From: Diplonema japonicum
Lineage: Eukaryota; Protista; Euglenozoa: Diplonemea
Length of the DNA stretch: 64,000 nt
Assembly: GCA_964019335.1 (NCBI GenBank)
Contig: OZ025648.1
Location: 744,001 to 808,000 of the forward strand
Direction: 5' to 3'
The translations under genes were made by a program, and so were the position numbers. A model generated the notes under the pieces. It did not search any database and was not told the DNA's origin. It was given only the letters and a program-made list of their open reading frames with translations. Below, in pieces: positions 662 to 62,703 of the stretch (position 1 is its first letter; the number at the start of each line of letters is the position of its first letter).

Positions 662-1205
662 ATGGCCGACGAATCAAAATGGGTTGAAATTTGGGACTTA
701 TTTGACTCGAAAAAAGCTGGTGCAATTTCAAAATCCGACTTTTTGGCGTGTGTGAGATCTTTGGGAAGGAAGTACACCGAAAAGGTATCACATTTTTTTT
801 TTTATTCTCCATTTTTTTTCTTCCTTCATATAGGACATGAATGAAAAAACCGCCGGTCTCCCCGATCCAGTCCCTAAAGATCAGTTTTTAGCTTTTATGA
901 AGGAACCATACACGGGGCCCACTGCTGAAGACTTGAAAACGGCTCTTACTGCCTTCGATGGGAAAGACAGTGGATCGCTGCCAATCAGCCAAATTAACAT
1001 GATGCTGAAGGGGATGGGCGATAAGCTGACAGACGAAGAGGCGCAAATCATTCTGGACGGACTCCCACAGGAGGGTGGGCAGGTCAATATCGAAAAAATG
1101 ATAGAATTCCTCAACCCCCCCCTCCCTTCGACCACACCAAACATGGACGAACTCAGAAAAGAAATTGAGTTAGAAGAGGCGGCTGCGATCGCTGCTGGAA
1201 ACTAG
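662..1205 (+). CDS. Calmodulin/myosin-light-chain-like EF-hand protein (~164 aa, 2 exons: 662-784, 834-1205)
   Basis: WDLFDSKKAGAISKSDF, VRSLG, AFDGKDSGSL and MGDKLTDEE match the calmodulin/MLC pattern. Removing GTAT..TAG intron 785-833 joins ORFs 662 and 837 in frame. Confidence 0.88.
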
Positions 1206-1327
1206 ATAGATGTCCCCCCCCCCCCCCCTTGTTGTCTTTCCTTAGTGTTTGTTTGTTTGTGTGTTCCATTCTTTTTCTGTCTTTGCTGCCACCTCCCCAC
1301 ACACACACAACAGTCGACACGTTCAAC

Positions 1328-9416: not shown

Positions 9417-12400
9417 ATGACAGCCATGGCCGACTGTGCAGTGAACATAGGTACTATGCGAAAAAGCGAACTTGAAAAAATATTGGAAAATGCAAAACGG
9501 CATAACGTAGACAGCGTACTGCTGATAGGTGGGAACGCGCAAAAATCCAAAGCCTGCTTGGAGCTCGCGCGAGACGAAACTCTTGTCAAAATAGGTGTGA
9601 AAATGGTGTGCTGTGCGGGTGTGCATCCAACCGAGTCGCTCTCCTGGAACGACAGCACCGAACAGACTCTGATATCTTGTCTGTCCGACCCGCTCTGTGT
9701 GGCAGTGGGTGAATGCGGCCTTTCATACGTAAAAGATGCCCCACCTCAGGAGGTTCAAAAATGGGTGTTTTCCCGACAAGTCTCGCTTGCTCAAAAACTT
9801 TCCCTCCCCATCTTTGCACACCAGCGTGGCCACTCCCAACACGATCTCCTCTCAACCCTCACCCCGGAGATGTACCCTTCAACGGTCATTCATTGTTTTA
9901 CAGGTTCCCTCGAGACCCTGCGCACCTACCTAACCTCAGGGTGCTGCGTGTCGTTCTCAGGATGGCTCGCACTTAAAGACAAAGGCTTCCCTTTAAGACA
10001 TTCCCTTTCAAAGATCCCCATTGCTTCGTACTTGAAGCAGATATTATTAGAGACAGACACACCGTTTTTAAAGCCCGACCTGTATGATACGGATGTGAAG
10101 TGTTCGGAGAAAAAAGAAAGCAGCGAACCCGCAGATGTTGTGCTGGTGGCGAAGTGTTTCAGCGAGGTGTCGGGGCTTTCGGAACAAGAGGTTCGGAAGG
10201 CGACGCACGACAACTTCTGGAGGATGTTCGGGAGGAAGGGTGGCCACGGCCATGGTACTGTGGTCAGGGTGCAGCATGGATCGGGTAAGAAAAAGAAGAA
10301 CTATTCGTCGGACGCGCCGAAGTTCATTGTGCCGCACACGCTCGCACGTCTTGCGAAGCAAATGCGCGGTGTGGGCATCGACACCATCATGATGAACACC
10401 AACGGCGTCGCGAAGCTGCTTGAAGCAGCAACCACTGAGAACCGCATCATCCTTTTACGGCATGCGAAAAGCATCTCAACAGAACGCCTCGACACCACAA
10501 AGTGGCTGAAGCTGAGCTCCGACCACACCCGCGAACAAGTCGCGCAAGTCCTCTCCACCTACAACTTGTACCCCAACGAGTCGGATCTCCAAAAACGATG
10601 CGTCGTCTGCAACGCCTGCAAATGGCATCGTGAAACGCACAGCAACGCCCGCAGCGAGATAGGCGACATCGCTGCCAACCACAAGATCTTCCGTTGCGGG
10701 GGGTGCAGGAAGCTGTACTGGGAGGGGGGTATTTTCCGAAAGGCGCAGAAGCACTTCAGAGCCCTCTACATCGACAAGAAGGAAGGCACTGAGGAGAACG
10801 AGGAGAGCCCCGTCTCGCCACCTCCCTGCAAGGAGCGCTGCAAGAAACAAGGTGCTGCGAAGAACTTAAGCAAGAAGGAAGTACACCTGCTGTTCATCCA
10901 CAACAGGTACGGTGTCGTACTGTTCGAAGCTCTGGGGAAATCAACGGCAGGTGCTAAATGGGAAATAGCCAAGACCCACGTGCTAGAACTAGGGGACAGA
11001 CCCTACTCAAGGAAGCCGGAGGTGGACCCTGCATCGGAGGTGAACTGGGACGAAGCAGTGATGCAAGCAGTGAAGCGGCTTGCCCGAGTGTATCTTGGCC
11101 TAGAGGTGAAGCGGAGCCAGGTGCGACCGGCAATCGACTCCGAGACAGGTGAGGAGATCGTGAAGGGGCGCAGGACGTACTTTGTAGTCCAGCTCTTCGA
11201 CAGTGACTCCGCTCCAAAGGGCACCGATGGGGCGCGGCCGCCCCTGTCCGGCGAGGATTTCTGGCTGCGCAGCTCATGCCCCTTCACTTTCGTCGCCAAC
11301 CTCAACGATGCCTCAGGCATGGTCAAGCGCAGCATGCCGGGCAGTGCAGGCAAGGTCGATGTCGTTGGCTCTGCTGTTCTCAAGTGGATGTCTCTAAGGA
11401 TCTTCACCAAGAAGATAGCTAACATACCCCGCACTGCGGCCCCCGTTGTCCTCGATGCCAGCTCCGAGCTGCTCAACTTCACCGCCGCCACCGCACACGG
11501 CGAGTACATCACATCCATAGCACAAGTTACAACCAAGCTGCGTTCCAAAGGAGTCGCACACCCTGACCACACGAGGGCACTATGGGACTGGCGCCCGAGG
11601 CATCTGGGAGGGTCCTACGTGCCGTCCGTCGAGAAGTACCTTGAAAAAGACGACCCCCCACCCGACCCAAGTGCGGGCATGCTGACCCCGATGAGACTGT
11701 GGCGGTGGTTCAACACAAACATCACACCACATGAAGGGGCGATACTAGCAAAGGTGAAGGCGATCCAGAAGCAGGTTCAGAGCGTAGTGGGGGAGGTGGT
11801 GGTGTTTGGCAGCACCGCGACAGGAGTAGCGGACAAGGACAGCTACGATGTGGACATGCAAGTGGTAGGTGCGTGGGATGAAGAAAACGAGAAGCAGCAC
11901 CTCATGGAACTGGCGGACAAGCTTCAAGCATCTGACATATTCGAAGTGGGGGAAATAACACCTGTACTCTCTGCGAGGGTCCCGGTGCTGAAAACCTTTG
12001 TGGGAACTGTTCCTGTGGACTTCACACTACGTTGCGAAGGGTGCTTCAACTCAAAGCTGTTCCGTGCTTACTTCGAACAGAAGCCATTTGTCCGCCCTTT
12101 GGCGTATGTTGTAAAGCGTTGGGGTGCGTGGTCCGGTGTCAAGTCACGAACGGTAGGCTGGTTCACTTCATACAGCTTACAACTGCTGCTGATCTACTCC
12201 CTCCTCCACAGTGGGTCCGTCGTCTTCGAGCCGTTGGAGAAAACAGTGCCTGTGATCGATAGTTACTCTGACGTTACGGGTGTTACCGACGCGCAGGTTG
12301 GGACGGCACTTGGTTACTTCTTCTGGTACTATGGGTGGAAGCATGACTGGGACAATGACGTGGTTTGTATTATGTCGCCAGTGCAAAAAGGTGTTCCGCT

Positions 12401-12624
12401 GACGAAGGCTGAGCTAGGGTGGGAGGATGCCCCTGCTGCAGTGCGCGACCCTTTTGAACAAGACCTCAACCTTACAAGGCGAAGCAAGGATAAGATATTG
12501 ACTGATGTATGTTTGAGGACGGGGAAAAAAAAAAAAAAAATCACAGATTTCACGGAGGTTTCGATTGTCGTATTCTGCGCTTGAGTCAGGTGGCCTGCAG
12601 TCCCTGTTTAGCGACACTGGGTAG
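9417..12624 (+). CDS. TatD nuclease + Mut7-C-like domain + possible degenerate Nudix fold + Cid1/TUTase nucleotidyltransferase fusion (exons 9417-12506, 12547-12624)
   Basis: TatD: GVHP, GECGL, HQR, IHCFTG, LETDTP. Mut7-C: LARLAKQMRGVGIDT, RCVVCN, CGGCRKLYWEG. NTase: FGSTATG..DVD, ARVPVLK, VDF, VKRWG, TSYSL, DPFEQDLNL. Intron 12507-12546 (GTATGT..CAG). Confidence 0.88.
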
Positions 12625-13103: not shown

Positions 13104-13885
13104 ATGTTGTTGATGGGGAAAACCAATGTGTTCCGGCAAGTAGGCGATCTGCTGCATCTGATGTCTGTGCTCATTGTGTTATATAAAATGTTGAGGTTGA
13201 AGTCTTGCGTGGGTCTCTCGTTGAAGAGCCAATTCGCATATGCTATTGTGTTCACAGCAAGATACCTGCCTACAATCTTCCACACACAATCGTTGTACCT
13301 TCTGGCCATGAAGCTGTTCTTTTTATCGACCAGCTGGTTCATAGTCTATTTAATGAGGTTCAAAATCCCATACAAAGCGTCTTACGACCCGAAGCTCGAC
13401 AGTTTCAAGATGCGATATTTGTTCATGGCCGCTGCCTTCATGGCTCTTATTTTTCATTATGACAATCCTCACCTTTTTATCGAGGTATGGGAGAATAAAA
13501 AATAAAAAAAAGAATTCTCAAAAAAAAATTTTTTTTTCAGATGCTGTGGACGTTCAGCGAATACCTCGAGGCGGTTGCCATCATGCCACAACTCCTCCTT
13601 CTCAACACGATAATCGAGCAAGGCAGGCCTTGGGAACTACTTACTTCGCATTACGTGTTCTGTCTTGGCCTCTACAGGTTTTTCTACGTTATCAATTGGA
13701 TCTATCGATACATTTACGAAAGTATGTAGTGCAATAGGGGGGGGGGGGGGGTGAAAGAAAACCACTCAGATCGCTGGAACTGGGTTGATACCACGTCCGG
13801 GATAATCCAAACCCTGCTTTATGCCGACTTCTTCTACACCTATATCAACGGCCTCGCTAAGTTGCGAGTAAGTTTGCCCAAATGA
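13104..13885 (+). CDS. ERD2: ER lumen protein-retaining (KDEL/HDEL) receptor (exons 13104-13484, 13541-13721, 13770-13885)
   Basis: [48 protein letters not shown] and [13 protein letters not shown]. Two GT-AG introns restore the full frame. Confidence 0.95.
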
Positions 13886-17563: not shown

Positions 17564-18819
17564 TAGAGGCCATAGTGATGAAGTGAAGGGGAAAAAAAAA
17601 AAGTAAAACGAATCATAAACCAATTCCTGTATTTTTTTTTCTTCCGATTATGTTTTTCTTTCCATTCGTTTTCTTCCCCCTCCAAGTTTCATTTGTTTTT
17701 GAACGGCTGTAGCTGTGATGTAGCATGAGCTTAAGGTTCGCTGTTCGTGTATCACCAACCCCAGTTTTTTTTTTGTTCTTGGATAATCAAGTAAGACTGG
17801 TTTGGGGTTCTATTGTTTAAGAAGAAGAAAAAAAAGAGAAACAAATGATGAATAAAGACAAAGGAGAGGAAAGGAGGCAGAAGAGAAGGGAAAAGAAAAC
17901 CAACAAAAAAAGAAGAAGAAAAAAGATAGCGTTGTAATTTTAATTTTACCCTCTAATATATCCACACAGAGCTCTTGGGTGGGCTTTGGGAATTTTTGGA
18001 TGTCAGTTGAAGATTTAGATTTTAGAATCCAGCCTTTTTAGGTGTGAATTTTGATTCTTATGATTAAAAAAAAGAACAAAGAACAAAGCAGGATATTCCA
18101 GAACACATGGTTTAAAAAAAGAAGAAGAAGAAAATGGGGGAAAACAAAGCAGCCATTGTGGATTGGTGTTGTGGGTTGCTGCTAACACTTCCCACCCTGT
18201 GACAATTTTATCTCCCCCCCTTTATTTTTGCGGCATTATCTTTGATGTCATAACTTTGCAAATATTCCTCTTTTTTTTTTAATATTTTTATTTTATTTAT
18301 TTTCTATTTATTCCCTCCCTCCTATCTCTGCTAAAAGAAGAAGAAAATGTAAAGAAAATAAAGAGAAAAACAAAAGGGATAACCTCTGCTGGATTTGCTT
18401 TTTTTTTTTCTTCTTTCTTTTTCCCTTTTTTTTAAATGCATGCTTGTACCCCCCCCCTTCATTCCGAGGCCTTGTGGTCAGAGATCGAGTGTAAAACAAA
18501 AACTGAAGGAAGGAAAAGGAAAAAAAATCTGAAGAGGGAAAACCCCCCCCCCCGAAAAAGAAGAAAGAAGCGTCGTGGTAACGCAAAAATCGTAAAATAA
18601 TTTCTGTTTTTTTGCTGTTATCCTCTCCTTCTTCCTCTTCTTCTTCTTCTCCTTCTTCATCCTTCCCTTACCTTTCTTTCTATTCCTCTTCTTTTATTTC
18701 AAGATAAACATGAAAAAAAAGGACTAAGAAAATACCAATAAAATGGCGTCATAAAACGCCACACTCGAGACCTCCTCCTTCGCTTCCCCTTCCCCTTCCC
18801 CACTTACTACCGTGTTGAG

Positions 18820-18847: not shown

Positions 18848-18885
18848 TTCAAAAAAAAGAATCAAAAAAAATCAGAAGACACACG

Positions 18886-40113: not shown

Positions 40114-40144
<31 letters not shown>

Positions 40145-40860: not shown

Positions 40861-40898
<38 letters not shown>

Positions 40899-44000: not shown

Positions 44001-47000
44001 TGCGGAAGGGCTGAAGCTATGGAGAACGCCGAAGGGCGAAGCGTGGGAAGGCGATGCTGTAATCGACCTTGTGGAGGACGCGAGGTGGACGGTAGGCAGG
44101 AAGGACGGAGTGGCATGGCGTGTAGCGGTGCCACTATTCATCCACACAGCCTCCATCTATCACACCACCATCTGGGCCGTGTGGGTGGCACAGCCCGAGC
44201 GTGTAATCGATGGGTGGTGGAAAGTCATTGAGAACACGGAAGACTTCGAGGGAGCCTTCGCAACGGAGGGACGGTCAGAGGACAGCCTGCAGCTCAACCA
44301 ACGCTGCGTCAACGCGATAGCAAACACCCTCACGAAGACCCCCGACGAGGTGCCCAAGCTCTTCCATGCCGTGAACCCGAAGACCAAACGAGGTCTCTAC
44401 GGCTTCACGACCACTAGCCCCGGCGAGGAGTGCACCGAGAAGGATCTCATCATATTTAGGTTCCGTGCAGGTGATGTGCAGGCCGCACGTTCATTCAGCT
44501 CGTGCGTTGCGTGGCTCCCCGCACCCGATAAAGCTTTCGTGAATGAAGACATCCTGCCGCTGTTCAGCGTGCTAGAATATATCTACTCGAGAACCCCAAC
44601 GGAGCCTCTAAAAGGCAAAGACGGCGGGAAGGGATGGGAATGCTGCCTTGCTCCTAGCAAGGACCTCCCGGACATCATATCCTCGGTCAGAACAAGGATA
44701 CGACAGCACAACCCGCAGACTTCTGATGAATCAGACCTGGAGTTGTACAAGGAGGTCGAAGAAAGAGTGAACAAGCTGGACAGCACACTGCTGACGGAGA
44801 CGTTCAAAGCGAAGATAAAACCGAGAAACGCACACGCGGACGACGTTGTCCCGACTCTGGACATGATATCCCAGGCGCTTGACATTCAACAACTGACGTT
44901 CAAAGACGGCGGCCTGAAGTTCATGCTTGCCTTGACGGGGCCGAAGAAGACGATAGCATACGAAATTCTCAAAGACGGCACTCCCGAAGTCAATGTCATC
45001 CACCTACACAGGGTATGCCGCCCTATGGGGTGCATGCCGTCCGACTACTTAGGGATAACCGCAGCGAACCTAATCAACGATCGAACGGAAATAAAACTGG
45101 AAATCGCGAAGAAAAGCACGATGGAGTACGCAGGTGTTTACAATCTGGTGCACCCTGGCGACGATGCCGAGTCTATGTATAACCAATCTCGCCGTGGAAG
45201 ACGCAGGGGTGTCAGGTCCACAACCACAGGTCCGATGTTAAACTCAACCCTGAGCTTCAGCGGCGACTTAGTAGGCTCGGAGAGTATTCATGCTTCCAAT
45301 GAGTTCGAAATTGAAGCCGACGAGTTCAGAAGGAAGGAAACGCCATCTCTGTCCGCTAGATGGTCTCGAAAGCGCGACGCATGGATCGTTATCACAAACT
45401 CCGGGAAACATGCTATTTCAGCGGAAGATGTTACCCTCCATCTTGGGAATTACATGACATCCTCTGTCCGGCCTCTTATGATGTCTGTTCAGTTCGCATT
45501 GGACGACATGATGATCGGGTCACGTCCGCCACCGTTGTACAGGGCTTCTTTAAACGCGAATTTAGCTAAGGACACGGCGATTATCTGGAGCTCGATGATA
45601 TCTGCTAGCGAGTCGCACACCATGGTGGAGTCGATGTTCAAGGAGGACGATGGGGCGACCATCTTCACGCTGTCGTGTACCTCTGCGAAGCCCATTTCTG
45701 ATTATTCTCGTTTCGGGCGTGAAATGGAATGGGCGGTGCCCCCCAACTGCGTGTTCGAACGGAAGGATGACAATCTCATCGAGGCGAACGACAACAGAGC
45801 GTTGAGCTTGTTCATTCAAGACAAGATCTCGTCGCTGTCTGCGAAGACAGAAAACTCCGATGTCATCAACCAACTGTTGTCCGCAAAGCAAAACCTAAAC
45901 CAAAACAACGTCCACAAGGCGTTGGAGATTATCTTGGAACCTGGCGATCCTGAAAGACCGGTATGGCATATGGGGGAGAAGGGAGAAGGGGGGGGGGGAA
46001 AGTTAACCACAGCTCATTGAGGACGATGACGGCTTCACAATCGCCAAAAAAACACTCCAATGCGGTGCAGACCCTATCTATGTCACCCGTGCTTTGTACA
46101 AGGCGGCGAAGGAGGGGTATTACAAGTGCGTCCCGCACTTGATGGAGTTAGGCGCCAATGTGAATGCAAAAGAGGACAGCATTGGGATGACCCCCGTGGA
46201 GCTTGCTATATTGGGAGGACACGAATATGTCATACAGGTATGTGGGGGGAAAAAAGAAGAAGGGAAAAAAACCAAACCTTTTCGTGCAGCATCTTCGATC
46301 TTGTTCTTCCGTGTCCATATCGCTCCCGGATGTCCGAAGCTACGCCGCGAGCGGTGAGGAGCTGGCTGTGCTTCTCATCCACACTTTGGAGAAAAGTGAA
46401 GGCAAGGCGGCGTCCGTACTGGTGGCGGACAGAGACGGGAAGTTTCCCATCAACCTTGCCAACGAGAACGGACACAAGTACACGGTCTACTTGTTAAAAA
46501 CTCTGGTACTGTCTTTTAAAAAAAAAAAAAAAAAAGAAGAAATCCACAACAACAGATGCTGGAAGTGGGGAAGTCCCTGCGTGAGATAGACAACGTGTAC
46601 TCGATGAGCCTCATAGACGTGCTGAGAGAGGCAATCGAAGCAGGGGAGAGCAAGGCGGCCATGGCCCTCCTGAAAACAATGGACAAGGTGCGGGAGAAAA
46701 ACGGGGTGAAAAACTGTCTGCACTACGCAAGCCAAAAGTTCACCCAAGGACAGGGGATACAGGTGCTGCGAGAGCTGACAAGAAAAGGCACACCACTCAT
46801 CAACATGATCGACCAGTCATCATGGTCTCCCTTGCGGTACGCAGTGGACGCGGGCAACACGCAAGCTGTGGAGATCCTTCTTGCAGCGGGTGCGAACCCC
46901 TACATCCCTGACAAGCATGGGAACCCCATCACAAGCCAAGCAAAGTCTGACGGAACTATAAGAGCACGCCTTCACGAGTATTTTGAAGACCGCTGGGCCA

Positions 47001-49141
47001 GCGCCCACGGTATTTACAAACACCTCCGTGCAGATGTGAAGGAAAAACTGGAGGAATTGGCGTCGATGTTCTTGCAGTCACCTGAAGAGCTTGTCGAAGT
47101 CCGCAAGGAATACCTGTTCTGGAGGGACGACAGGGGCAGCATCAACAAAGTTTGCTACAACTTCATCGCGAACGGGCCCAAGGGAGAGGGCGTGGACGAG
47201 CTCAGCGCGAGAATCACACAATGGAGGTCGCGATTTGAGAACAGCACCGAGAATGTATAATTTTCAAAAAAAAAAAAAAAATATTGCAGATTCAACTTCA
47301 CGAGACGACAAAGAGGAAGGACCTCACCAAAGCTTGGCTCGAAGCCTGGGACAGTCTCAAAGCCGACTCCGAAGCAGAGATGAAGTACATGAACGACATG
47401 CACCACGGGGTCACGCATGGTAAACGGTGGGATTTCGTGAGGATCGCGAAAGTGTTGAACTCGGTTTTATTGTTTCTCTCCGGGGTATGTTCCGAGAAAA
47501 AAGGAGGAAAAAAAAAAATAAATGCACAACAGTTCTACGTTCTCCTGTCTGTCCCTTACTACATTTTCGCAAACGAGGAGGTCGGGACGCTCTGCACGGC
47601 GATAGATGCTGTTCTATACAGTTTGTACGCTGTGAACTTTGTCATCAATATAAAGGTTAGAAAAAAATTTTAAAAAAAAAAAAGAAGAAAAAAAAAAAAA
47701 AAACCAGGCACGTCCTAACACGGTCGAGATCGACACCGCCTCGCCTAGCAAGGAGGAGAAGGACGACTCTCTCACGAAGGAGAACGACGCCGAACGCGAG
47801 GACCGCGTCACCCTCATAAAAATTACGTACCTCCGGAAAGGTTTGATGCTCGTCCCGATCCTCCCGCTACGCGCCTTCGGAACGAACCCTTTACTAAGAC
47901 TGAACCTTCTCCTCGGCTATACCCATTGCTACAAACTAAACGAACTCGGCTTCTTACAAGACAACGTAATGCAAATGTCATGGGTCCTCATGCTTGCTTG
48001 CTACGTCTCATATCTGACAGGACTTGTTCAACTTGCAGGCGAATGGGGTGTATGCAGCTCTGCCAATACTAGCGGTTTCTGGCAATGTCAATACTACACG
48101 TTAAGGCTCTTTGCAGGGTGGGATGTGTATAGAACCAGCACCAATGAAGAGACGGGCATCGTGGTACTAGCGGTCATTGTGACACTGATAGGGTTCGCAA
48201 CACGAGCGTTGTTCATAGCAGCGGTGATACGTTTGGTAGAAACGAGAAACCCCCGAAAGAAAGCTTACCGAGACAAGGTTGAAGAAGTACTAGACTGTCT
48301 ATCACACGCAAAGCCCGAGGTTCAACAAATCGCGCTAGACTACTACAAACTATGCTGGCGAACACGCGGTACCGTCGACCTCGTCCAGACCTCCGAGGTC
48401 CTCGGCCCGTTGTACCCCTTACTACAGTACATGGTGGAGTCCGCCACTGCAATCGAAGTTAAGATGAAAATCCCGCTTCTCAACAGGGTGACAATCGACA
48501 AGCTCACCGACGTCATCTCCTCCTTCAGGTACATGCTCGCTCCAAAAGGAGTGATGTTCTTTTCGCAAGGTGATGAATCGACGCACATGTATTTTATATT
48601 GTCAGGGTCGGTTGAGGTGTATGTGGGAAATCATTGTTTTGTGGCAAGACTGTCAAAAGGAGATTATTTCGGTGAGGTGGGGCTCATCACCAAAAGGAAA
48701 CGCAACGCATCGGTCATGGCAAGCTCAGATTGCGAATTATACCAATTCGACGAGGGTGCGTTCGCGGAGCTGTTGAGCAACAAAGATGTTCACTCTGAGA
48801 TCATTAAAGTGGCGTCGGATAGGAAACATGATTCTGATCCTATTCTGAACCATCTTGCGCTGCACACGCTTGACGACACTGAAGCTTTGTACTCCACCTC
48901 CTCGCAGACTGTGAACTGGGATCTTGACGGGGTCGTGTCGATCCGTTCTGCTGATTTCAACCATCCGCCCCCCCTTCCTTCGCAGCCTTTGATCGCCTCT
49001 CCTATTGCACCTCGTGAGCGGGAACACCGGAAGGTAAAAAAAGGAAGGTGGGTTAAACCCCGTGGGCACAGCCAGTCAACCACATTGACCAACCCCTCAC
49101 ATCCTTCTAACCCGTTGGCGCTCACCCATAAGCACACTCAG

Positions 49142-49174
<33 letters not shown>

Positions 49175-49281
49175 CGGGAAAAAAAAAAAAAAAAAACCAG
49201 AATGAAGGGGATCTCGAGTTGGCGAGCCACAGCAGCACCATGAGTGCTCACGGAGACGGGCATGTTTGGGATGAGGATTGA
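41044..49281 (+). CDS. ADP-ribosyltransferase / ankyrin / 6TM cyclic-nucleotide-binding ion channel fusion, ~2629 aa, 8 exons (41044-45960, 46013-46237, 46290-46505, 46556-47254, 47290-47484, 47533-47655, 47708-49141, 49201-49281)
   Basis: Seven 35-59-nt phase-0 GT..CAG introns join all fragments in frame. ART motifs YRG/YSSSS/EME and YRA/ISAS/EME. Ankyrin repeats, six hydrophobic segments, a C-linker and a CNBD (QGD..MYFILSG.V..GDYFGEVGL..RNASV). Confidence 0.82.
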
Positions 49282-50520
49282 TTTGATTTTTTTTTTCCCC
49301 CTTCTATGTCTATTACACGTTCCCTATGGCCATATATATATTATTTTTTTCCTTTTTTTCTTCTTTTTTTTTTCGTAGTGGTGGGAAACATTGGGAGTAC
49401 ATCAGATGTGTTGTTCGCTGTTTGACCTCCTTGTCGGTCATCACCGGTAACAACCTAGTGGAAGAACGTATTGCAGATGCTCAAGGTGACGAACAGGCAA
49501 ATTGCTGGGGTTGAGCTGCACACCGCACGCATTAAGGACGCGCCGCGGAATGCAGAACTCGGCCGAGGTGCGCCCCTGTAATCAACTGGCCTCCTTTATC
49601 TCACATATAAGTTATCGATTTTTTTTTTTTTTTTAATATTTAAGATCGGTGTGGTGTAAACCCCCTCGATTTTTTTTTCCCCCTTCTTTTGGGGCCATGT
49701 GGTTCTCTGAACCCGCCTCTAAAAAAGCAGGCGTGCGCGTCCTTTTTTTATTTTTTTATTAATTTTTTTTTTGCCTTGGAAATCACTTTAAATCGGCCTT
49801 TCCCATCCCCCCCCCCCCCCCCCCACCAGGATTGGCTTCGGATGTAGTTTCCTTTGGAAAAAAAAAACCAACGTCCTGTACAGTTCTGTAGGAGGGAAGG
49901 AAGAAAAAAAAAGAAAAAAAAAAGGGTTTCAAAGAATACAGGTTACAGTTTTTTCCCTCTTTTTTTTGACATCCCCCCCCCCCCCCCCGACTCTGCGAGT
50001 TGCTTTTTTTTCTAGCTTTTTTTTTAATACTATTGCACCTGAGTGAGTGAGAGGAAAGGGGGAAAAAAGGACAATAAAAAAAAACCCCTCTTACGCAGCT
50101 TTATTAGGAGGGTCCTGGTTATCTTCCCGAAAGGTTAGTAACGTACTCCTTCAAAAAAAAATGAACCTGTGAGCCCTCCCATTTTTTCTTTTTTTTTTTT
50201 TTTGCGCCTCAAAATCCCAGGGGAAAAAAAACCACCTTTTTTTCCCCCCGGGATTTCTCGAGCTAACTTTGTTCTTTTTTTTTTTTTTCCCGCCTAAACA
50301 TCGCCTTTTTTTATTTAAAAAAAACCAACCTTACCCTTCTCCCCGCCACTTCGTTTGCGTAGAACAAAAAAAAAAGAAAAAAAAAAGAAAAAAAAAAGTA
50401 TAAGACTCAGATTCTAAGAATTGTTTCCAACAAGGGGGTTTTTTCCTTGAGGGTTTGCCTATCTGTCGGTACATTTTGAATCGAATTTCTGAGTCTATAG
50501 AGAAAAAAAGGAAGAAAAAG

Positions 50521-50553
<33 letters not shown>

Positions 50554-50712
50554 AATCAGAGTAAACTTTTTTTTTTTTTTTTTTTTTTTATATTTGGTTC
50601 TGTTCCTTCACATCTGTTCCGGCTTATTTTTTTTTTTTTTTTTTTTTTATATTTTTTGGCTTTCCCTCCCCCCACCCACCTGCCCTCGGAAAACACAACA
50701 AAAGGCCACACA

Positions 50713-50766
<54 letters not shown>

Positions 50767-50769
<3 letters not shown>

Positions 50770-52318
50770 TCTGCAAAAGAAGACCATGCAGACTTAAGAA
50801 AAGCTCTGGATAGCTCGGATCTGGACAAAGTTAAAGAGATTGTAAGAAACAGCGGATGCCCGGAAGAATGCCGATATGAAATGTGGAAGATGGTTCTAGG
50901 TGTCAAGGAAGAAGGCACCTTAAGAACCGGCGACGTAGATATGAACAGTCTCCAAATGGACACCGAACTCCTCCTCCAAGGCAAGAGCGACGGAAACCTC
51001 AGCAAAAAGGACGTAGAGGACGTTTTAGTAGACTACTGCATCTGTCGAGGCACCACATATTCCATAGAACTCACAGATCTCATAGGACCGCTCATATCCC
51101 TTCAAGGCGTCACAACTGTAGGCTGCTCCGGACTGCTTAAAGCAATATGCAGTCAATACGCCCCTTTCCTTCATTACCCAACATCATCACCTATTGGAGA
51201 AGCCGCGACTGAAGCAACACAAGTTGACACATATAACCTTCTAATCAGGCTTTTACTTCAGTACCATGATGCGGTGTTGTGCACCCATTTGGACAGAAAT
51301 AAATGCGATACGGGCGAACTGGTTACATGGTTGAACGGGATATTTGTGAACCAACTTGGTTCGGAGTCGATTCATCCTTTGTGGGATGTTTTTTTTTCGG
51401 ATCCCGACCAACTTCTCTCTACTTTTTTCGGTCTGGCCGTGTTGGTTGGAAACAGAACGGAGCTCTTAGAAGCTTCAGGAGAACAAGCTGTCACCGAAAC
51501 TCTTGGTGCAATTTCCATTCCGTCAGGGGTTGACTCTATTAATAGTCTTTTACAATCCGCAGCGGAATTTCGAAAAGCAACACCGCCTTCTGCTTGTATG
51601 CGAATTCTGAAACTGTTTAACCCCATTGGGAGTATTAACCAAGAGCTCCATGACGAGCTGATCACATGTGTTGTCCTACCGATTGAAAGCGAAGAACTCA
51701 TCGAAGTGTTCAAAAAACGCCAAGCTCCCCGATCGTCTCTTAAGTTCATGGTGTTGGACTGCAGAGCATTGAAAAGCTACAACTTCGCACGACTTCCCAC
51801 TGCAGTACACGTTGGCCCCAATGTCGGGTACGAACCTACAAAATTATCGGAAATGCTTGAACGGTTCGAAGGCGCGCGGGGATCGCATTTCTGTTTAATG
51901 GGTACCGGGAGGGGGATACAAGCTGAGCTCAATCTGCTCAATGTCCTTGCGTTGCGATTTGTGTCAAATGGGTTCAGTCATATTGGTGTTGCTGTGGACG
52001 GGTTTAAGGGAGTCATCCCATTCATCAAAGCAGATCTTATAGAATTTGTTAGGGAAACCGTCGACCCTCAGCCCCCCACCCCGTCAAAGGGGCTTGAGGA
52101 TAGTACAGTCATAGAGGGTGATGCCAAGCCCCACAGTCTGGCGTCTCTTAAAGAAGTCGACACAGCGGCGCTGAAGAAAGCTGCGAATGAGAAGGCCGAC
52201 AAGGTCAAAAAATGGGGGCGCGGTCTGCTTGAAAAATGGACGTCGGGAGCCGGGGCAGAAACATCTCAGCAACCCGCCCAAAAACAAGAACAGTCGTCGA
52301 GATTTGGTGGTATGTGTG

Positions 52319-52351
<33 letters not shown>

Positions 52352-53029
52352 CTGAGAATAAAAAAAAAAAAAAAAAAGGCTATTTCGGAGGCAAAACAAG
52401 TCAGAAAGATGTGCCCTCGACAGCTTCCAAGAAGACAGCTTCTCCCAAGACCGTTGCCGCAAAGCCATCCAACGAGGTGTGTTATTAAAAAAAGGGGGGA
52501 AATAAAATAAAAATAAAATAAATAAACAGCAAGAGCCGGCCTTCGCTCTTGTCGGTCACGACTCAGGGGATTCTGATGACGATTTCCAGCTCATATCCCA
52601 TCCTACCAGGGTGGAGGGCGGTGGGTATGTGATAATTTGTTATAATTACTGTATTTTCTTTTTTTTTTTAAATCCCCCTTCCCCCCGCAGTCCTGAAGAA
52701 CCCGCACCAGTTGAAGCCCCTGTTGTCGCAGAGGAGGAAAAAGAGATTGAAGAAGAAAAACCAGAGGCGAAAGAAGAAGAGCCCAAGAAGGAAAGAGAAG
52801 AAGTACAGGAAGAAGTGGTGGCACCTGAGGTGAAGAAAGAAGAAAAGAAGGCGGTGGACTACGACGATGACATCTTTGGAGACGTGACCCCCGAGGAACT
52901 TGCCAGCAGCAAGGCAGCAGAAAACACAACAGAAGAAAAGAGCGCGTCCCCCTCAACTGCTTCCCCTAAGAAGGACGACATGGATATTTTCGCGGATGAT
53001 TTCAATATCGATGATATTGAACTGTATGT

Positions 53030-53082
<53 letters not shown>

Positions 53083-53148
53083 AGGCCCAGCGACAAAAAG
53101 GTTACGAAGACGTCCGACAAAGATGATCTTGATGATCTGTTTAATTAA
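50767..53148 (+). CDS. TBC1D23: TBC1D23-like protein (TBC + rhodanese-like domain, acidic tail); introns 52310-52378, 52477-52529, 52625-52690, 53024-53084
   Basis: RLLLQYHD..LC..LD, LWD, VLDCR..YN..LPTA.H and HFCLMGTG match TBC1D23. Removing the introns gives a continuous frame ending DDLDDLFN*. Confidence 0.78.
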
Positions 53149-53784
53149 AAAAAAAAAAAAATCTGGCTGTGATTTTTTGCCCTATGAACGTAGAAACACA
53201 ATTTTTCTCTCTGTTTTTTTTTTTTTCTTCTCCCTTCTTATTCTCCCTTTTCTCTTCTTCGCTGAAAGTGTTTTTTTTTTTTTTTTTTTTTTGCAAGAAC
53301 GAGTCTTTGACTTGTCTAAACAAAAGGGGAACGTTGGCAACGTGTTTCGGGTTGACAAACTTCTCCAGGTTTTACCCGGCAAGTACAAACAACGGCCAGT
53401 TCCTCTTTTTTTTCGTTCTTTTTTTTATTATTATACTCTACGGGAAGAGGGAAGGAGAGAGAGATATTCATCGAATTCTTTTTTTTTTTGTAAAATAATT
53501 AAAACACTTTTTCTTTAAACCCCCCCCCCCCCCAGTGTGAGTTTCTAAAGATTTATACCCTGTCGGTTTTCTTTCCTTTTTCTTCTTTTTTTATTGCCAC
53601 CACCTTGCCGTATTATGTTTCCCTGAACTTCTCACCCCCCCCCCCCCCCCGCCTTACCTGGTCTTGGATCTATTTTTTTTTTTTTTTTTGCAAACACACT
53701 CATATCATCAAAAGGAGAAATTTGAAAGGGAGAAAAAAAAATGAGAATAAGAATACAATAGAAATCAGGAGAAGAAAGAAGACC

Positions 53785-55599
53785 ATGGCAAACGTCTGCA
53801 AGGCGGCGTACGGAAAATGCAGATCTTTCGCCCAAGCATTGGCGGTCCACAACCATTTTATACACCGGGGGAGCCACGGGATAGAGGAGAACGCCCTGGG
53901 GCTGTTCTCTAAGATTGAAGGAAGAAAGGACGCGGAAGCCGCCATAGAGAACGTCTACCTGCCCATCGGCCAACGAGAAATAACCTATGTGAAAGAAAAA
54001 ATGAAGGAAAACGGCTGCGGGGAGAATGACATCTCAGAAGTGGCCTCGAGAATGAAAAGAATAACACAGCAAAGCTTGAAAATCAACAACGGAACCATCC
54101 ATCTCCCGGAAGGTGAGAAGGGAGTCGCCTTACAAGCCGTGGCCAAGCTACTGTTCAATCCCTCAAACGACAGGCTCCTCAACCTCTACAAATGCGACGC
54201 TGATGAAATCAGCAGATTCTCTAAAACACCTTCTGTCTCCCTGTGCGCGGACTTCCGTGAGAAAGTCCACAGGATCAAGGCTGGAATTCTAGTCGCCGAG
54301 AGAAGCAACACCTCTATTATGAAGGCAACAACAGCATTCCACACGGAGCCCCCTCTTCCAGAAGAGACGCGAACGGATAAAAACCACCCCAACAACAACG
54401 TAATCCCCCCCGATTTTTCATTATGTTCCACAAGACAGGAATTGCAGCTAAACAAACTGCCTGTTTTAACGCTTAACGAGACAGCCTTGGAGGGGTACCT
54501 AGCCAGCTTGACGTGGCTACCAAACGGCCCGCCGAAAATATCTGAAGAACATCCAAGCCTCGCGGGAGAATTATCCCAATGGATGGAAACCTACACATGC
54601 TCCCCTAAGGTGTTGAAGGCGGCCGCTACGCTGGCGTCGATCGCGGGCAACGAGGAACCTCGTTTCACAAATGACATTCTGAAACTAATTCAGAAGCACA
54701 TGATATACGTGCAGCATGATGTGCAGCTGCTGTGCTTGACGTGTTGCCTCTACGAACACACGGACGGAGGACAGCCTGCGAGATCTGCAGCAGTCTTGAA
54801 AGGTGTATCACGTGTTTACAATATGAAATCAGGCGTTTCGTTCAAATACGCGCTTCTGGCCTTGGAGAGCGGGTGCCGTCAAGGCATCGCGCGCAGCACA
54901 GTCCTTTCAAACTTCATCCGTGTACTATGTAAAACAAACTACAACGCCCCCAAAGCGTCGCGGTTGTGCGTTGTTGCTGCGTCATTATGCCCGGAAGTCT
55001 TGGGTGACACTTTGGTGCAGCTTGCAAAATGTGTCAAATGGTGCGAGAAACCTATTATCCACCCTACCTCAGCCATCAATGCGCTGCGTGCTGTTGCAAC
55101 TGTTCCAAAGCATCTTCGGGATGATAAAACCCTGGCTGCCATGGTGATGGTGAATAAAACCGTGGCGGCCGACACCCCTGTGTGGGTGCGGAGGGGGAGC
55201 ATCGCGCCCCGTGATGCTGTTGATGTGGTCTACCACACTGTGGCAAGCGGGTATCGTCTTATGCCCTCTGCTGTGTTTGAATCCTTGATTGTATATGCGT
55301 CCGATCACCCAGACAGCACAGTGCCCGAGCTTATCCGGCTTGTCCGCGCCCTTGCTACTGCGCAGGTCACATTTTCTTTGTCCAAGGTGGTTGCTCGGCT
55401 GGTTAAGGATGCGAGGCGTGCGCCTCTTTCTGCTCGTCAGGTCGACGCGCTTGTGGGGCGCCTTGCGAAGACTGGTCTAGGTGTGCCGCACGAACTCTTG
55501 TTGCAACTTCACACAAAAAGCGACATTGTGTGGGAACTGAAACCCAGGATGAACCTCCGGAGCTATGGGGAGTCCTCTCAAAGCTTTTTGCGAATCTGA
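53785..55599 (+). CDS. Uncharacterised, probably alpha-helical protein (604 aa)
   Basis: Long intronless ORF with coding-like composition, starting at ATG 53785 after an A-rich leader. No family recognised. Confidence 0.78.
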   Translation: MANVCKAAYGKCRSFAQALAVHNHFIHRGSHGIEENALGLFSKIEGRKDAEAAIENVYLPIGQREITYVKEKMKENGCGENDISEVASRMKRITQQSLKINNGTIHLPEGEKGVALQAVAKLLFNPSNDRLLNLYKCDADEISRFSKTPSVSLCADFREKVHRIKAGILVAERSNTSIMKATTAFHTEPPLPEETRTDKNHPNNNVIPPDFSLCSTRQELQLNKLPVLTLNETALEGYLASLTWLPNGPPKISEEHPSLAGELSQWMETYTCSPKVLKAAATLASIAGNEEPRFTNDILKLIQKHMIYVQHDVQLLCLTCCLYEHTDGGQPARSAAVLKGVSRVYNMKSGVSFKYALLALESGCRQGIARSTVLSNFIRVLCKTNYNAPKASRLCVVAASLCPEVLGDTLVQLAKCVKWCEKPIIHPTSAINALRAVATVPKHLRDDKTLAAMVMVNKTVAADTPVWVRRGSIAPRDAVDVVYHTVASGYRLMPSAVFESLIVYASDHPDSTVPELIRLVRALATAQVTFSLSKVVARLVKDARRAPLSARQVDALVGRLAKTGLGVPHELLLQLHTKSDIVWELKPRMNLRSYGESSQSFLRI

Positions 55600-55772
55600 A
55601 ACAAGAAAAAAAAAAAAGAAAAAAAAAACTGCTGCTGCAGTTCCGAGCTTCTTATATTGTATTTTGCTTTTAAAAAAAAAAAAAAAACCGAATGAAAAAA
55701 ACTGACAAAAAAAAAGGTGGGAAGGAGAACGGAGGGGGGTCTTTTTTTTTAAAAAAAGAGGAAAAAAAGAAA

Positions 55773-56971
55773 ATGGAGCCTTTTAAAGACCCGTTCGAGG
55801 TGGTCCTTGAAGACGGAGCCTCCACATCGCTCGCCCCGCAGCCTGGGTACCGGTTGAAGCTTACTTACGTGGCTTTGCAAAACGGAGACGAGGCATGGGT
55901 GATGGTGGATGGGAAGCCGCTGGCGCTTGTGAGAACCGAAGGGCACGGCGTGGTGCTGTCGATTGTACTGGAAAAGAGTGCGACAATCTCCGTGAGAGGC
56001 GGGAAGGTGGTGGTGTTCATGTACTGGGAGCTATACAACAGCAGCGCACTGTATGCTGATTATGGTATGATTACAAAAAAAAAAAAAAAAAAAGAGAAAA
56101 AAAAATAACAACAGAATCAAGCGACAGTGAAGACCTCCCCACAATTGGTGACAAGAAATTTCATTGGAACGGCATCCCGGACTTCCAGGGAAAACTCCAA
56201 AGCGAACCAGAACCACCGCTGCTGGTTGCTGCAGAGGACGCTGTGGAACCCCCTGCTCGGGCAGTGGGCATGGACGTGACACCTCCAAGAATGTTTGCTT
56301 TAGTACCCTCGTCATCCCCCGAGGTATATTCCCTTCGGAGAAAAAAAAAAAAAATTCCCCAGAGAAGCGCGTCTCGATCTGAAGACGAAGGAGGTTACTT
56401 TGTAAAGATTCCATCTCAATCTTCCCCCACGCTGCCGACCGTTCCGAGAAAGGTGTTTGCTGTTGTGCAGGAAACGAGCGTTAAAAAGGAAGCACCTGTT
56501 GTTTCATCATCTGTACCCCCCTCGCCTTCACCTGTTGTTCTCGCTGCGGCACCGGTGCTGCCGAAAGAAACTGAAATGGTGTTCCCCACCCCGCAGCATG
56601 GCAGGGCAGTGCCGAAAGGTGTTTTAAAACGGCGGTCAAGGTTGCTGCGGGTGTCGAAGTCACCTCGGATGTCCCCCAAATCCTCACCTACATCCACCCC
56701 GAAGAAACGGAAGGTAATCTTCAACCCTAGATCTCCAGACATCCGGTTTATCTCGCCACCTCTCAGTTCCATCCACAAGGCCTTCTCAGGGGGTCTGCTT
56801 GATCTCGGTGTGCCATTGCTCACCGACCTCAAGCACGCGATTCCCGACCAGCCGGTTCAGCAGGAAAACATCTCTTCGCCCAACCAAACATCCGGCCGGA
56901 AACCCATCCACATCCCCCACCTGCAACCTGTGGTCACCCCAAAGGCACTACGTCCGACCGTGATCGAATGA
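55773..56971 (+). CDS. Nucleoplasmin-like N-terminal domain protein with S/P/basic tail and PP1-docking-like motifs; introns 56065-56114 and probably 56324-56362
   Basis: Beta-rich LKLTYVAL..PLALVR..VVLSIVL..ISVRGGKVVVFMY followed by acidic ESSDSED. The intron joins ORFs 55692 and 56243 in frame. Confidence 0.68.
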
Positions 56972-57351: not shown

Positions 57352-58457
57352 ATGCACCCCAACCTCGTCACGATGTATGAAGGGTTCAAAAGGTACGACC
57401 AAGGGGGCACAGGCACTGTACGAGATGAAGTATTTCTCCGGCAAGTGAGGGATGCCAGTGGGGAAGTTCCTTCAGTCGAAACGCTTCTGCCGCAGTTTAG
57501 GTCGAAGGTATACCCAGGAAGGGTGGACTACTTGGGTTTTATAGAACACTTGAATGTGCTGGTTTCCAAGCAAGTCACGCAGCTTAAAGAGCAGTCCACT
57601 CTCCCCAGCGGCAGGGCAACACCAATGACGCCGACAAACTTCGTAGAACTACCACCTGAGAACCCTGTGGAGCACCAGCTGCAGACGCAGATCCTTCTTC
57701 ACCAACGGCAGCAGCATACACCGCCGAAACGTTATGCCCTTCCTGTTTCACAGCGGCGGCAGCGATCCCCCTCCACTCCGCAGCAGCAATACCAACCACA
57801 ACATCAAAACAAGCAACCACAGCACCATGCCCAGGACAGCCGTGAGGTGTGCCACCGCAACATTATATCATTCTAACTTACAACAACACAGTACCAGACA
57901 CAGAGGGAACGGGGTTTTCTTGAACCCGCAGAGGATGAGCGGCCGTCTGTCATTCCTATGAAGGTGCGGAGTGAGCAGCCACAGACCAGCATCAGCACAC
58001 AGCCCTTACCCGTGAAAGTGAAGGAGCCGCAGTTGTCGATGGGAAGTTCACATCCCTTGATGCAGAGCAGGCAAGATGTTGAAGCACCGCAACCTCAGCT
58101 GCAAGTGCACAGTGTCCCGTACGGCGCACAGGCTACTTCACATGCCAACACCAACCAGCAGGACGAGGATCGCACTCCCACCCGCTCCCTGCCTGCGCAA
58201 GAAGATGATCTGCCCATCAAAGCCCTTTTCAACCACCTTGATGCGTATGCACCCTTAACCATCACGACATAACAACAGCGACGGCGACGGAGTCGTTACC
58301 TACGACGAGCTGTACAATGCACTGAAGTCACGTGGCGTGGCACCTAAAGAAGATGAGTACGATGCAGCCTTCGAGCAGGTGGACAAGACTGCAGCAGGGT
58401 TTTTGAACTATCAGCAGTTTAACGGGCTGTTAAAAATGTTAGTGCCAGAAGAAGACG

Positions 58458-59845: not shown

Positions 59846-60065
59846 GCCTCATGCTGCAATAGAGCGAACCGATAGTTTTAACTGTCGAGAATACGGGCTT
59901 TTGGAGAAAGCCTAGAAGAGAAAAGAAAAAAAAAATCGGAGTAATTATTTAGACAATTTTCACCTTTCTCCCGTAGATTCTTAACTAGATGTTTATAGAT
60001 TCCCCCATACTTTTTTTGTATCGGTTTTCCGCCCAACACACCATCACTCAGAGGGGCTAGGTGTC

Positions 60066-62703
60066 ATGGATGCTGGCTCTGAAACTGTTGCCAATGTGGT
60101 GGGGGAGATGGCAGGAAAGAAGGGGTTGCGGCATGCGTTCGACACGGTGATGACTGGGATGCTGTCGGTGTGCGACAGGCAGGAACTGCACGCTGTGGTA
60201 TTGCAGTGGGCAGAGGAAAACGCAGTGCTTGCCCTCCCTCCTTTGGACGGGTCGGAGGGGTCAAGCACACATGACTACTACGAGTCGAGAAGCACCAGCT
60301 CTGACGAAGACAAGAAGAGGCAACAAACAAACAACAACAACAATTTCAAGAGTAACAGGATGGCCCTGATGCCCGTGTCGAAGCCTCAGCCAGCACAGCC
60401 TGTGAAGAAAGTACCTATGAAGCCGACACCGAAGACCCCGAACAGACGCCACCCTGCCCCCCGCTGCCCCCCATGGCTTGCCCATGCGGGGCTCCCCACC
60501 GACGGGTCCATCCCCTCTTCAAGTGAGATCACTGCGTTTGCGAACTTCGTGGGTGCAACTAACAGCGAGGTCTCGGCTAGGTCGTCAATGAGGATGTCGT
60601 TGCAGAAGCTTGTGCAACTTCTGGTGTGTCAGGAAGCTATCTTGAAAGTCATCGGTGGCTGGGCCTCCGGGTTGGCCACCTTCACCAGCACCCTCGACCT
60701 TGTTGTCGAAGCTCCCACCGAGACCAGCATTCTGGATCAGATCTCAACAGCCCTTCGTGACCTTGGCGTCCTGTCGGAGTTTAAGATGGTGAGCGGCTTC
60801 TCTGCGCTCCGTCTCTCGAGTGACGCGTTGGCCAGCGCCGTCTGGGGGCAGCAGCAGGTCCTGTCCCACACAAGCCGTCAGGTTCAGCAAGGCTTCGACG
60901 TGCTCATCTTCTCTGAATGCCCCGGTTCCACAGGGCCTTTCAATTCCCGCAGTGCTACCACCAGAATCTCCTCTCGCCTGAACAAGTACCCTGGACATAA
61001 GAAGACCGCGATCGTCATCCGCTCCATTATCGAGAAGACGAACATCGGTGAGCAGCAGGGTGGCGTCAACGGCTTCCTCATCCTGCTCATGTTCGTGGCA
61101 TTCCTCGAAGAGCACAAAACGCATTCCGAGATAGCCGACTCCGGTTGGGTGCTGCGGCAGTTCTTCCAATTCTACTCGTCCTTCTCTTACAAGACGAGAA
61201 CCATTGTCCCCATTCCCTCTCCAGGCACCTCTGCCTTCATCCCTAAAGTGGACCCCCAGTCGCAGCTCTCTATCATGGACCCTCTAGGCACGTCAGGTCA
61301 GGGCTACACACCGTACAATGTCGCCGCAGGCGTCACAAAGTTGAACCAGCTGACCGGTACACTGCAGTACATCAACATGTTGATCCTGAGGTACGACAAG
61401 GACCCGCGTGGCACACCGCTCCTCCCCAATCTGGTGGCGTGCGGTGAGTCGCTGTGGAAGCGCCACGCGTGGTTGCGCAAAGGTCTTGAGGTTACGAAGC
61501 CCCTCGCCGTCAGCGTAGCGCAGTGCGTGGCAGACTTCCTCGAGAACCCCGCAAACTTGCAAGCAAAGGAGGAACTGGTGAAGATAGCAGCATGGGAACC
61601 CATGGACAACTCACTGACCACAAAATTACAGCTCATCACAAAGGTTGTCAACCAGCAGAACTCGCCGCTTGCACATTTCAGGGAGCACGTCCCGCAGCTA
61701 GTGGAGGCCTTGGCGCAGTACAAGGACGTCCCAGAGGTGCAGGAACACTACCGCCGCTCAGTGAAGACAAGCGTGACGAGGGAGTTCGTCATCACCATCA
61801 CAAGGGAGATCGCGGACTTCATCACAGACCCCGCCAACTGCAAGTACAAAGCAGAACTGATGACAGTGACATTGAAGGCCGTGGACGAGGAGACCGCGAA
61901 TGAACGTGTCACGTTACTACTGGAGAAGGTGGCAGAACGCCCTGGGTCAGTGCTGAAGGAATTCAGGCCTGTGATGAAATCGCTGCTGAATACAATAAGC
62001 GTATCGACCCTGTCGGGTGATGAGGAACTGGACAAGCAAAACTTCAGAATCTTGCAGCAGATGGTGACGCCTGAGATGGCCAGCAGGGTCGCAGCAGAAG
62101 CAGCGGACTTTCTGGAAGAGCTGGCGAAAAGTGATAAAAGAGATGAATTCATGAAACAACTTATTGGTAACGGTGAATGGAGCCCCCGGCAGAACTTCAC
62201 TGCATACATCAGAATCTTCAACCAGATGAAGATGAGAGGCGGGACATCTGTCCTGTCTGGTGTGTCACCTAGTGTTATCCCTGTATTGGCGAAGGTTTTG
62301 GACGAATTCAGCGACTACCCGGAGGTTAGGGAAAATCGAAGGCGTGCTGCTGCCGCTTCCTTCACGAAGGATCTTGCAGTAGCCATCAAGAAGGACACGT
62401 TGGCCTTCATTGCAAGGCCCGACAACGAGAGATTCGTCACACAGCTTAAAACCAGCCACAAGGATATCAATGAGGAGCTGTTGAGGGCACTGTGCAACGA
62501 GCCTGGCTCGAGGCTGTCTGATTTTAGAGGAGAGAAGGGGATGGAAGAGGTATATTGAGGAGGATAAAAAAAAAATTTTTTTTTTAAAAATAAATGCGCA
62601 GCTCAACTGCCTTCTTAAACCGTTCAATGACGATCCTGAACTTCTTGTTGCCAACCAGCAGATAGCTGAATCCGTATTTGCGAATTTACGGCTTGAGGAT
62701 TAG
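60066..62703 (+). CDS. Trf4/PAPD5-like nucleotidyltransferase-fold protein (degenerate active site) with four C-terminal helical repeats; intron 62550-62601
   Basis: EITAF.NFV, VIGGWASGLATFTSTLDLVV, GGVNGF..LM, GWVLRQFFQFY, LSIMDP..NVA. The intron completes the last repeat. The start codon is uncertain. Confidence 0.75.

Follow-up and report, generated by a model that had tools for sequence, protein, structure and literature searches.

How are the 3′ ends of introns chosen when there is no pyrimidine tract, and how does an intron-rich organism that also adds a spliced leader to its mRNAs keep that leader from cutting its genes at internal acceptors? Both questions are raised by a 64,000 nucleotide (nt) stretch of the Diplonema japonicum genome (contig OZ025648.1, positions 744,001 to 808,000; hereafter the window), and all intron statistics given here are drawn from this one window rather than genome-wide. 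It contains 20 GT-AG introns in eight genes, spread from 785 to 62601 and 34–69 nt long (median 51), which were called from gene models in place of a brute-force GT-AG scan that was too noisy. A first-pass annotation of the same DNA had counted 20 introns of this size range and proposed that their A- or G-rich fill is a code by which internal acceptors avoid capturing the leader; the independent gene models match its count and lengths, with one-to-one identity checkable for the 11 intervals that it quoted, each of which does begin with GT and end with AG. We find that the introns are genuine and are spliced out of the mRNA, that they are A-rich ahead of the acceptor, and that the A/U bias is at most a soft tendency with exceptions, not a strict code.

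The annotation had taken the host to be a euglenozoan, which is borne out by the EukProt Diplonema_japonicum accessions on three of three proteins fully identical to the gene models and by the 16 protein genes of the window, every one of which lies on the + strand with homopolymer-rich spacers between. A 68 % relative of one model-identical protein is labelled D. ambulator, and the best named NCBI homologue of the largest gene (at 41044) is D. papillatum DIPPA_15853 (42 %). For D. papillatum, the genes are described as lying in unidirectional arrays, essentially every mRNA as bearing a leader and the 5′ untranslated regions (UTRs) as about 70 nt long (PMC10161547, available in part, as were the other articles cited by PMC number); those of its supplement files that were searched hold no text on acceptors, outrons or U2. 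That D. japonicum introns have an A tract is already known (Thakur et al., 2025, RNA, PMC12621601). According to the available text, 10,131 introns were mapped with reverse transcription PCR checks, 98.33 % of them canonical, with a median length of 41 nt, a (G)/GTATG donor and a CAG acceptor, the tract region having A as its most frequent base, and YTRAY in 13.9 %; the five other diplonemid species studied prefer C in the tract. Minigenes described in print gave poor splicing from one species to another. The introns described here resemble those in species label, donor, CAG, A-rich tract region, weak YTRAY (3/20) and shortness, A being commonest in the last 20 nt (62 % at −20 to −4) and CAG present in 18/20, but differ in their median of 51 nt (n=20). 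The main text of that article, as available, has no mention of the spliced leader or outron and no comparison of cis with leader acceptors.

Evidence of splicing comes chiefly from transcript-derived proteins. For the gene at 41044, the model with seven introns removed is identical to Trinity protein P0014 over 2629 of 2629 residues; for that at 50767, the model with four removed, including the one with an AAG acceptor, is identical to P0001 over 710 of 710 residues. Trinity protein P0023 corresponds, in all of its 291 residues, to the gene at 57352 as modelled without 57847–57891 but with 58245–58278 kept in, and the spliced form of the latter junction is seen in the D. ambulator protein P0024. 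The retention in P0023 falls within an EF-hand loop and shortens an 804-residue protein to 291 residues. At the nucleotide level, a contig of run X1, guessed to be RNA, skips exactly 50 nt at 56065–56114, and record 9 of run X2 has 193 letters between 52308 and 52690, the length expected once three introns are subtracted. Two KDEL receptor introns were placed by collinearity with PF00810 and KDELR2; a homologue search with exon 1 of this gene gave no match. Scanning metagenomes with the TBC alignment turned up no related locus. The support is from same-species transcript proteins for 12 of the 20 introns, from a contig for one, from homology for three and from inference alone for four (785, 12507, 56324 and 62550). 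The annotation had allowed that its junctions might prove unspliced; within the window, 13 of 20 have transcript-type support. That the intervals are assembly errors or unspliced sequence is an explanation with next to no chance of being correct. It can draw on the four introns that rely on reading frame or pattern alone and on the intron retained in one isoform, but it is met by transcript-derived protein identity over 12 junctions and by an X7 contig that spans 44800–47654 and crosses five introns with no other letters and no gaps, two further introns being crossed by X6 and X7 contigs. This contig comparison covers 44800–56900 (12,101 of 64,000 bases; four of the seven listed runs), with 7 of the 20 introns outside it, and the runs, none of which is on record as RNA, were compared as contigs, which cannot reveal 5′ ends or leader junctions. 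The spliced contigs of X1 and X2, labelled as other organisms, are about 94–99 % like the window over 44800–56900 and have variants in common, suggesting a close relative or strain.

Most donors begin with GTAT (16/20) and most acceptors are CAG (18, with one TAG and one AAG), frequently as AACAG, CACAG or ACCAG (11/20); a CTAAC branch motif occurs once among the 20, in 57847–57891, and a T9 run stands directly before the CAG of 13485–13540, all much as the annotation had described. The donor signal is an extended one, with GTATG in 11 introns, G at +5 in 14 and an exon-final G in 15, and should be able to pair with U1, the match having been scored against a general consensus and not the species' own U1. 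Termini other than GT-AG, by which the non-canonical introns of euglenids and hemistasiids are known, occur in 0/20, and the stable pairing of both intron ends that marks non-canonical introns is not seen; predicted folding is weaker than −3.3 kcal/mol in 14/20, the two strongest folds being U-A hairpins. The choice of acceptor follows a simple pattern: in 19/20 introns it is the first CAG or TAG (YAG) at least 30 nt from the donor, and AAGs at least 30 nt from the donor are bypassed in five introns and used in one. Like the introns of Giardia, Trichomonas and Yarrowia (PMC2483917, in part), these introns have no 3′ pyrimidine tract and an AC-rich end before the AG, but unlike them they show no strong branch motif at a fixed distance, YTRAY occurring in 3/20 at −10, −19 and −24.

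Between −20 and −4 the introns contain 62 % A, 17 % T, 15 % C and 6 % G, and in their 5′ part 45 % A, 31 % T, 17 % G and 7 % C. The A- or G-rich fill up to the acceptor that the annotation described therefore stands as far as A is concerned, but 'purine fill up to the acceptor' was rejected, since G makes up only 6 % there and lies mostly in the 5′ part. Over the intron body, purines exceed 50 % in 14/20 and A exceeds T in 16/20 (sign test, p 0.012). The A fraction at −20 to −4 (0.618) compares with 0.300 ± 0.052 in length-matched intergenic windows and is reached in 0/5000 simulations (similar fractions below are given in the same way); for this control the spacers of tandem duplicates were used once, one short stretch was omitted and the 150 nt beside coding DNA were excluded. 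Selection by eye does not explain the excess: where transcript identity covers the full intron set of a gene, as it does for two genes with 11 introns between them, A stands at 0.68. A metazoan-style U2AF65 tract, taken as a pyrimidine fraction of at least 0.7 at −20 to −4, is present in only 2/20. Introns 785–833 and 52625–52690, which the annotation singled out as the only clearly pyrimidine-rich ones, are so, but it passed over 49142–49200 and 52310–52378, which have the longest U tracts (30 and 32 T).

Fill of this kind might simply be neutral, its A runs being slippage products of no selected base identity. Homopolymers are indeed abundant in the non-coding DNA, and intron length correlates with homopolymer content (Spearman 0.83, n=20). 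Runs of at least 7 nt, however, are 17 A to 7 T in introns against 144 A to 157 T in same-strand intergenic DNA (Fisher p 0.035), no simulation reaches the A excess, and the composition is not constant along the approach to the acceptor or to the ATG, and we regard wholly neutral fill as very unlikely. The same run counts show that, in this window, the fill is not strand-symmetric; genome-wide strand symmetry is what the annotation had named as fatal to its idea. Same-strand intergenic DNA has no A bias (A 0.30, T 0.35), which argues against a plain transcription-strand mutation bias. Since C and G account for few of the intergenic runs of at least 7 nt (28 C and 7 G, next to 144 A and 157 T), dropping the T runs leaves A.

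The A content also rises towards the 3′ end, from 0.45 to 0.62 (paired p 0.044), and peaks at −16 to −12, where 13–16 of the 20 introns have A at each position. This suits a change of specificity, in which U2AF2 or another 3′-site factor would bind A-rich RNA and the A tract would be a positive signal replacing the pyrimidine tract. In 49142–49200 and 52310–52378 the U tract lies in the 5′ half and an A run sits 3′ of it, 58245–58278, the sole intron seen retained in a transcript, has no A run, and Thakur et al. interpret the tract as pointing to flexibility in the spliceosome (PMC12621601, in the available text). Introns 785–833 and 52625–52690 have only 12 % A at −20 to −4, however, and 52625–52690 is spliced; the retained intron is a single case, and is also the shortest, with a weak donor. 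A changed specificity seems to us distinctly improbable.

The reading that we favour combines pairing of the donor with a YAG across a short intron, no tract being needed, with slippage fill that is filtered by soft selection against U and C; we judge its chances to be about even. Recognition across the intron is a familiar mode for short introns, and unconstrained adenosines are usable as branch points. The introns would be removed by the major (U2) spliceosome, a strong G/GTATG donor pairing with the first YAG some 30 nt or more downstream, so that a pyrimidine tract would be unnecessary and recognition would likely operate through short length and strong ends. The A-rich 3′ part may serve as an unstructured, YAG-free spacer that also supplies several branch adenosines, and the A/C-rich stretch beside the AG is probably common to leader acceptors. 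Fill would grow by homopolymer slippage and then pass through soft selection against U and C, a filter that would act in the same way on 5′ UTRs; the reason for it would probably be that a U tract followed by AG invites leader addition in polycistronic RNA. Of this scheme, the splicing, the composition and the first-YAG pattern are established. A full U2 small nuclear ribonucleoprotein set and U2AF1/2 are reported in D. japonicum (PMC12621601, in part), and tract-less U2 introns are described as common in fungi and some protists, the tract being typical and not universal (PMC2483917, in part). In trypanosomes, a correlation with translation is seen for A-rich tracts in UTRs (PMC12304876, in part), and an effect on translation is a separate possible reason for A-rich 5′ UTRs.

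The annotation's own proposal is taken here in a fuller form: the A fill would mainly deny internal acceptors a pyrimidine tract and restrict the leader to gene starts, and leftover U tracts would be masked as a hairpin by an adjacent A run. To set cis and leader acceptors side by side, a strong tract was defined as at least 13 pyrimidines in 15 nt, and in place of leader-junction reads the AG that first follows the last strong tract was taken as the inferred leader acceptor, which gave one for 13 of 14 genes. Pyrimidines make up 0.35 of intron bodies, the background being 0.54 (0/4000), and the interval from −140 to −81 before the ATG is 0.68 pyrimidine (21/4000, 13 genes); strong tracts occur in 4/20 introns against 8.07 expected from random windows (242/5000). 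In the available parts of the respective articles, tract mutations reduce trans-splicing in T. brucei (PMC2879531), trypanosomatid cis introns all have tracts and leader-exon 2 RNAs arise from them (PMC11613528), and in Schistosoma leader capture goes with greater intron length, a higher U content and longer tracts (PMC5832876). Measured against intergenic CAGs, however, of which 39/125 have a strong tract, the depletion in introns is not significant (Fisher p 0.43). In the four introns concerned, the distance from the end of the tract to the AG is 0 or 23 nt, which falls within the 0–32 nt range of the inferred leader sites, and yet three of the four are confirmed as spliced in full-length transcripts, including 49142–49200 and 52310–52378, each with a distance of 23 nt; two of the four lack an A run that could mask the tract. 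Depletion of U is strong at −20 to −4 (1/4000) but not significant at −45 to −21 (434/4000), the zone of the inferred leader tracts, where C is depleted in introns (0/4000).

Start codons and inferred leader acceptors resemble the cis acceptors, a further difficulty for such a code. A makes up 0.62 of positions −20 to −4 ahead of acceptors and 0.61 of those ahead of 14 start codons (p 0.87), and A at −40 to −1 before the ATG is 0.56 (0/4000); the last 10 nt before the AG contain 0.51 A and 0.27 C at cis acceptors and 0.45 A and 0.28 C at the 13 inferred leader acceptors. A runs often adjoin the ATG, for example at 50714–50766, where an A54 run includes the start-codon A of the gene at 50767. 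T runs immediately follow several stop codons, and T-richness after stop codons was dropped as a candidate signal (589/4000). Masking by hairpins has some appeal, an A run of at least 9 nt lying within 12 nt of 4/6 intronic T runs of at least 9 nt but of only 10/111 intergenic ones (p 0.002), and the two longest U tracts being predicted to pair with their own A runs at −12.5 and −14.6 kcal/mol, folds more stable than those of the other 18 introns; the adjacency was nevertheless discarded as independent evidence, since 12/20 introns carry an A run of at least 9 nt anyway. Five other diplonemids prefer C (PMC12621601) and the cis introns and outrons of Euglena share a C-rich tract (PMC11170887), both according to the parts available, so leader-using relatives manage without such a code. 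What remains of the annotation's proposal is a set of spliced, strand-asymmetric and pyrimidine-poor introns, not a strict code; restriction of the leader as the main role of the A fill seems doubtful to us. A cis-versus-leader code is plausible, with a precedent in Schistosoma, and is neither proven nor excluded by these data. In a literature search, largely outside subscription papers, no comparison of cis with leader acceptors in a diplonemid was found.

One version of the idea would accommodate the likeness of the two kinds of site: cis and leader acceptors might be separated by where a U tract is permitted, both having the A/C-rich AG-proximal stretch, leader acceptors alone having a U tract upstream of it, and the long U tracts of a few introns being hidden in U-A hairpins with the adjacent A run. 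We put this forward tentatively and think it unlikely; if true, U-tract placement would be a sequence rule for choosing cis- or trans-splicing within an intron-rich polycistronic genome.

Several points weigh against the reading that we favour. The 30 nt threshold was set post hoc, with the shortest intron (34 nt) already known, the one AAG acceptor violates the YAG rule, and the sample is small (20 introns in eight genes, 11 of them from two genes). The 3′ rise of A could equally mean an A-binding factor. The inference of leader acceptors is circular for the tract and partly so for low G, and is no evidence of a leader addition site; moreover, 89 % of random 170 nt intergenic windows contain a strong tract, for which reason the presence of one upstream of 13/14 genes was discarded as evidence.

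Comparison with other leader-splicing systems rests on articles available in part. As in the cis introns of trypanosomatids (PAP1, DBP2B and RBP20; PMC11613528), GT-AG introns here lie inside polycistronic, leader-processed RNA, but those are confined to three genes, have tracts universally and give leader-exon 2 products, whereas here there are many introns, mostly tract-less. Cis- and trans-splicing can use the same acceptor in trypanosomatids (PMC11613528), and acceptors shared in this way are common in flatworms (PMC12582326). In Schistosoma mansoni, leader capture is less frequent at introns that are short and poor in U and whose tracts are short (PMC5832876), which is the logic of the annotation, although this is a statistical trend in an animal, drawn from leader-trapping reads, with no replacement by an A tract. 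Euglena gracilis (PMC11170887), also a euglenozoan, likewise combines cis- with leader splicing, has CAG acceptors and departs from the usual tract composition, but its tract is C-rich and is alike in cis introns and outrons. With thousands of natural A-tract introns and a U-tract minority, D. japonicum makes the cis/trans idea directly testable with leader-junction reads. A search of 56,900 of the 64,000 bases against Rfam matched no families, and thus gave no U2 or leader RNA gene to compare for branch pairing.

Table 1. Introns of the window, with their sequence features and the basis on which each was placed
Intron	Strand	Features	Gene	Basis
785..833	+	49 nt, GTATCA..TAG, pyrimidine-rich throughout	Calmodulin/myosin-light-chain-like gene	Inferred: retention truncates the open reading frame (ORF) at 60/164 aa (amino acids); EF-hand matches on both exons
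12507..12546	+	40 nt, GTATGT..A16..CAG	TatD/Mut7-C/nucleotidyltransferase gene	Weakest: sequence pattern alone; ORF 1055 aa long with retention too
13485..13540	+	56 nt, A-rich, T9 CAG	KDEL receptor gene	PF00810 positions 1-85 end 7 aa before junction, resume at 92
13722..13769	+	48 nt, G15 then A-rich, CAG	KDEL receptor gene	Exon 2 end = KDELR2 residue 173, exon 3 residue 5 = 179: no space for 16 codons; in-frame stop
45961..46012	+	52 nt, G/A-rich, end TTAACCACAG		P0014 identity
46238..46289	+	52 nt, purine 5′ half, mixed 3′ end		P0014 identity
46506..46555	+	50 nt, GTACTG..A18..ACAACAG		P0014 identity
47255..47289	+	35 nt, A16		P0014 identity
47485..47532	+	48 nt, A/G-rich, in frame without stop		P0014 identity
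47656..47707	+	52 nt, donor GTTAGA, nearly all A		P0014 identity
49142..49200	+	59 nt, T30, A18, CCAG; predicted U-A hairpin −12.5 kcal/mol		P0014 identity; fold prediction
52310..52378	+	69 nt, T32, A16, acceptor AAG; predicted U-A hairpin −14.6 kcal/mol		P0001 identity; X2 record 9
52477..52529	+	53 nt, GTGTGT..A-rich..AACAG		P0001 identity; X2 record 9
52625..52690	+	66 nt, pyrimidine-rich, conventional tract		P0001 identity; X2 record 9
53024..53084	+	61 nt, A51, CAG		P0001 identity
56065..56114	+	50 nt, A-rich, ACAACAG		X1 record 7 contiguous across 56063 to 56114 (50 nt skip; run guessed RNA)
56324..56362	+	39 nt, in frame without stop, CCCTT..A14..CCCCAG		Inferred; X1/X2 contig pieces end 56321, begin 56357 (weak hint)
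57847..57891	+	45 nt, A/C-rich, sole CTAAC (at −19)		Removed in P0023, model-identical over 291 aa
58245..58278	+	34 nt, shortest, no homopolymer run, weak donor, interrupts EF-hand loop		Junction as spliced agrees with D. ambulator P0024; D. japonicum P0023 retains the intron
62550..62601	+	52 nt, A10 T10 A5, GCAG		Inferred: ORF stops 2 codons past donor if retained

The gene with most introns (41044–49281) encodes a 2629-residue protein with ankyrin repeats, an ADP-ribosyltransferase domain (PF01129) and a cyclic-nucleotide-binding domain, and D. papillatum DIPPA_15853 is among its relatives; all seven of its introns are in phase 0. Over 41044–53148, ENA records give the homologues of this gene and those of the TBC gene identical longest-contig values (233868 and 1147133), a hint that these genes may lie side by side in other assemblies. 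In each of the four compared runs, contigs pile up to a very high depth over the short intergenic segments at about 49420–49560 and 53320–53390, where loose ends are also numerous, suggesting high-copy dispersed repeats. Within the unidirectional array, a 7.5 kb stretch (33549–41043) has no called gene. Upstream of it, four near-identical tandem genes (14273–31396) are spaced at about 4610 nt, each with a product of 1095–1096 residues and a signal-like N terminus; the first copy has no Pfam match. A TatD DNase, a Mut7-C RNase and a Cid1-like nucleotidyltransferase are fused in one 1055-residue ORF (9417–12624), and the polymerase palm domain matched by this ORF recurs, as a weak match, in the gene at 60066. 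The segment 1328–5275 encodes a protein of 1315 residues in which four CAP (cysteine-rich secretory) domains occur together with cysteine-rich repeats and Pro/Thr linkers; at its C terminus lies a likely membrane anchor.

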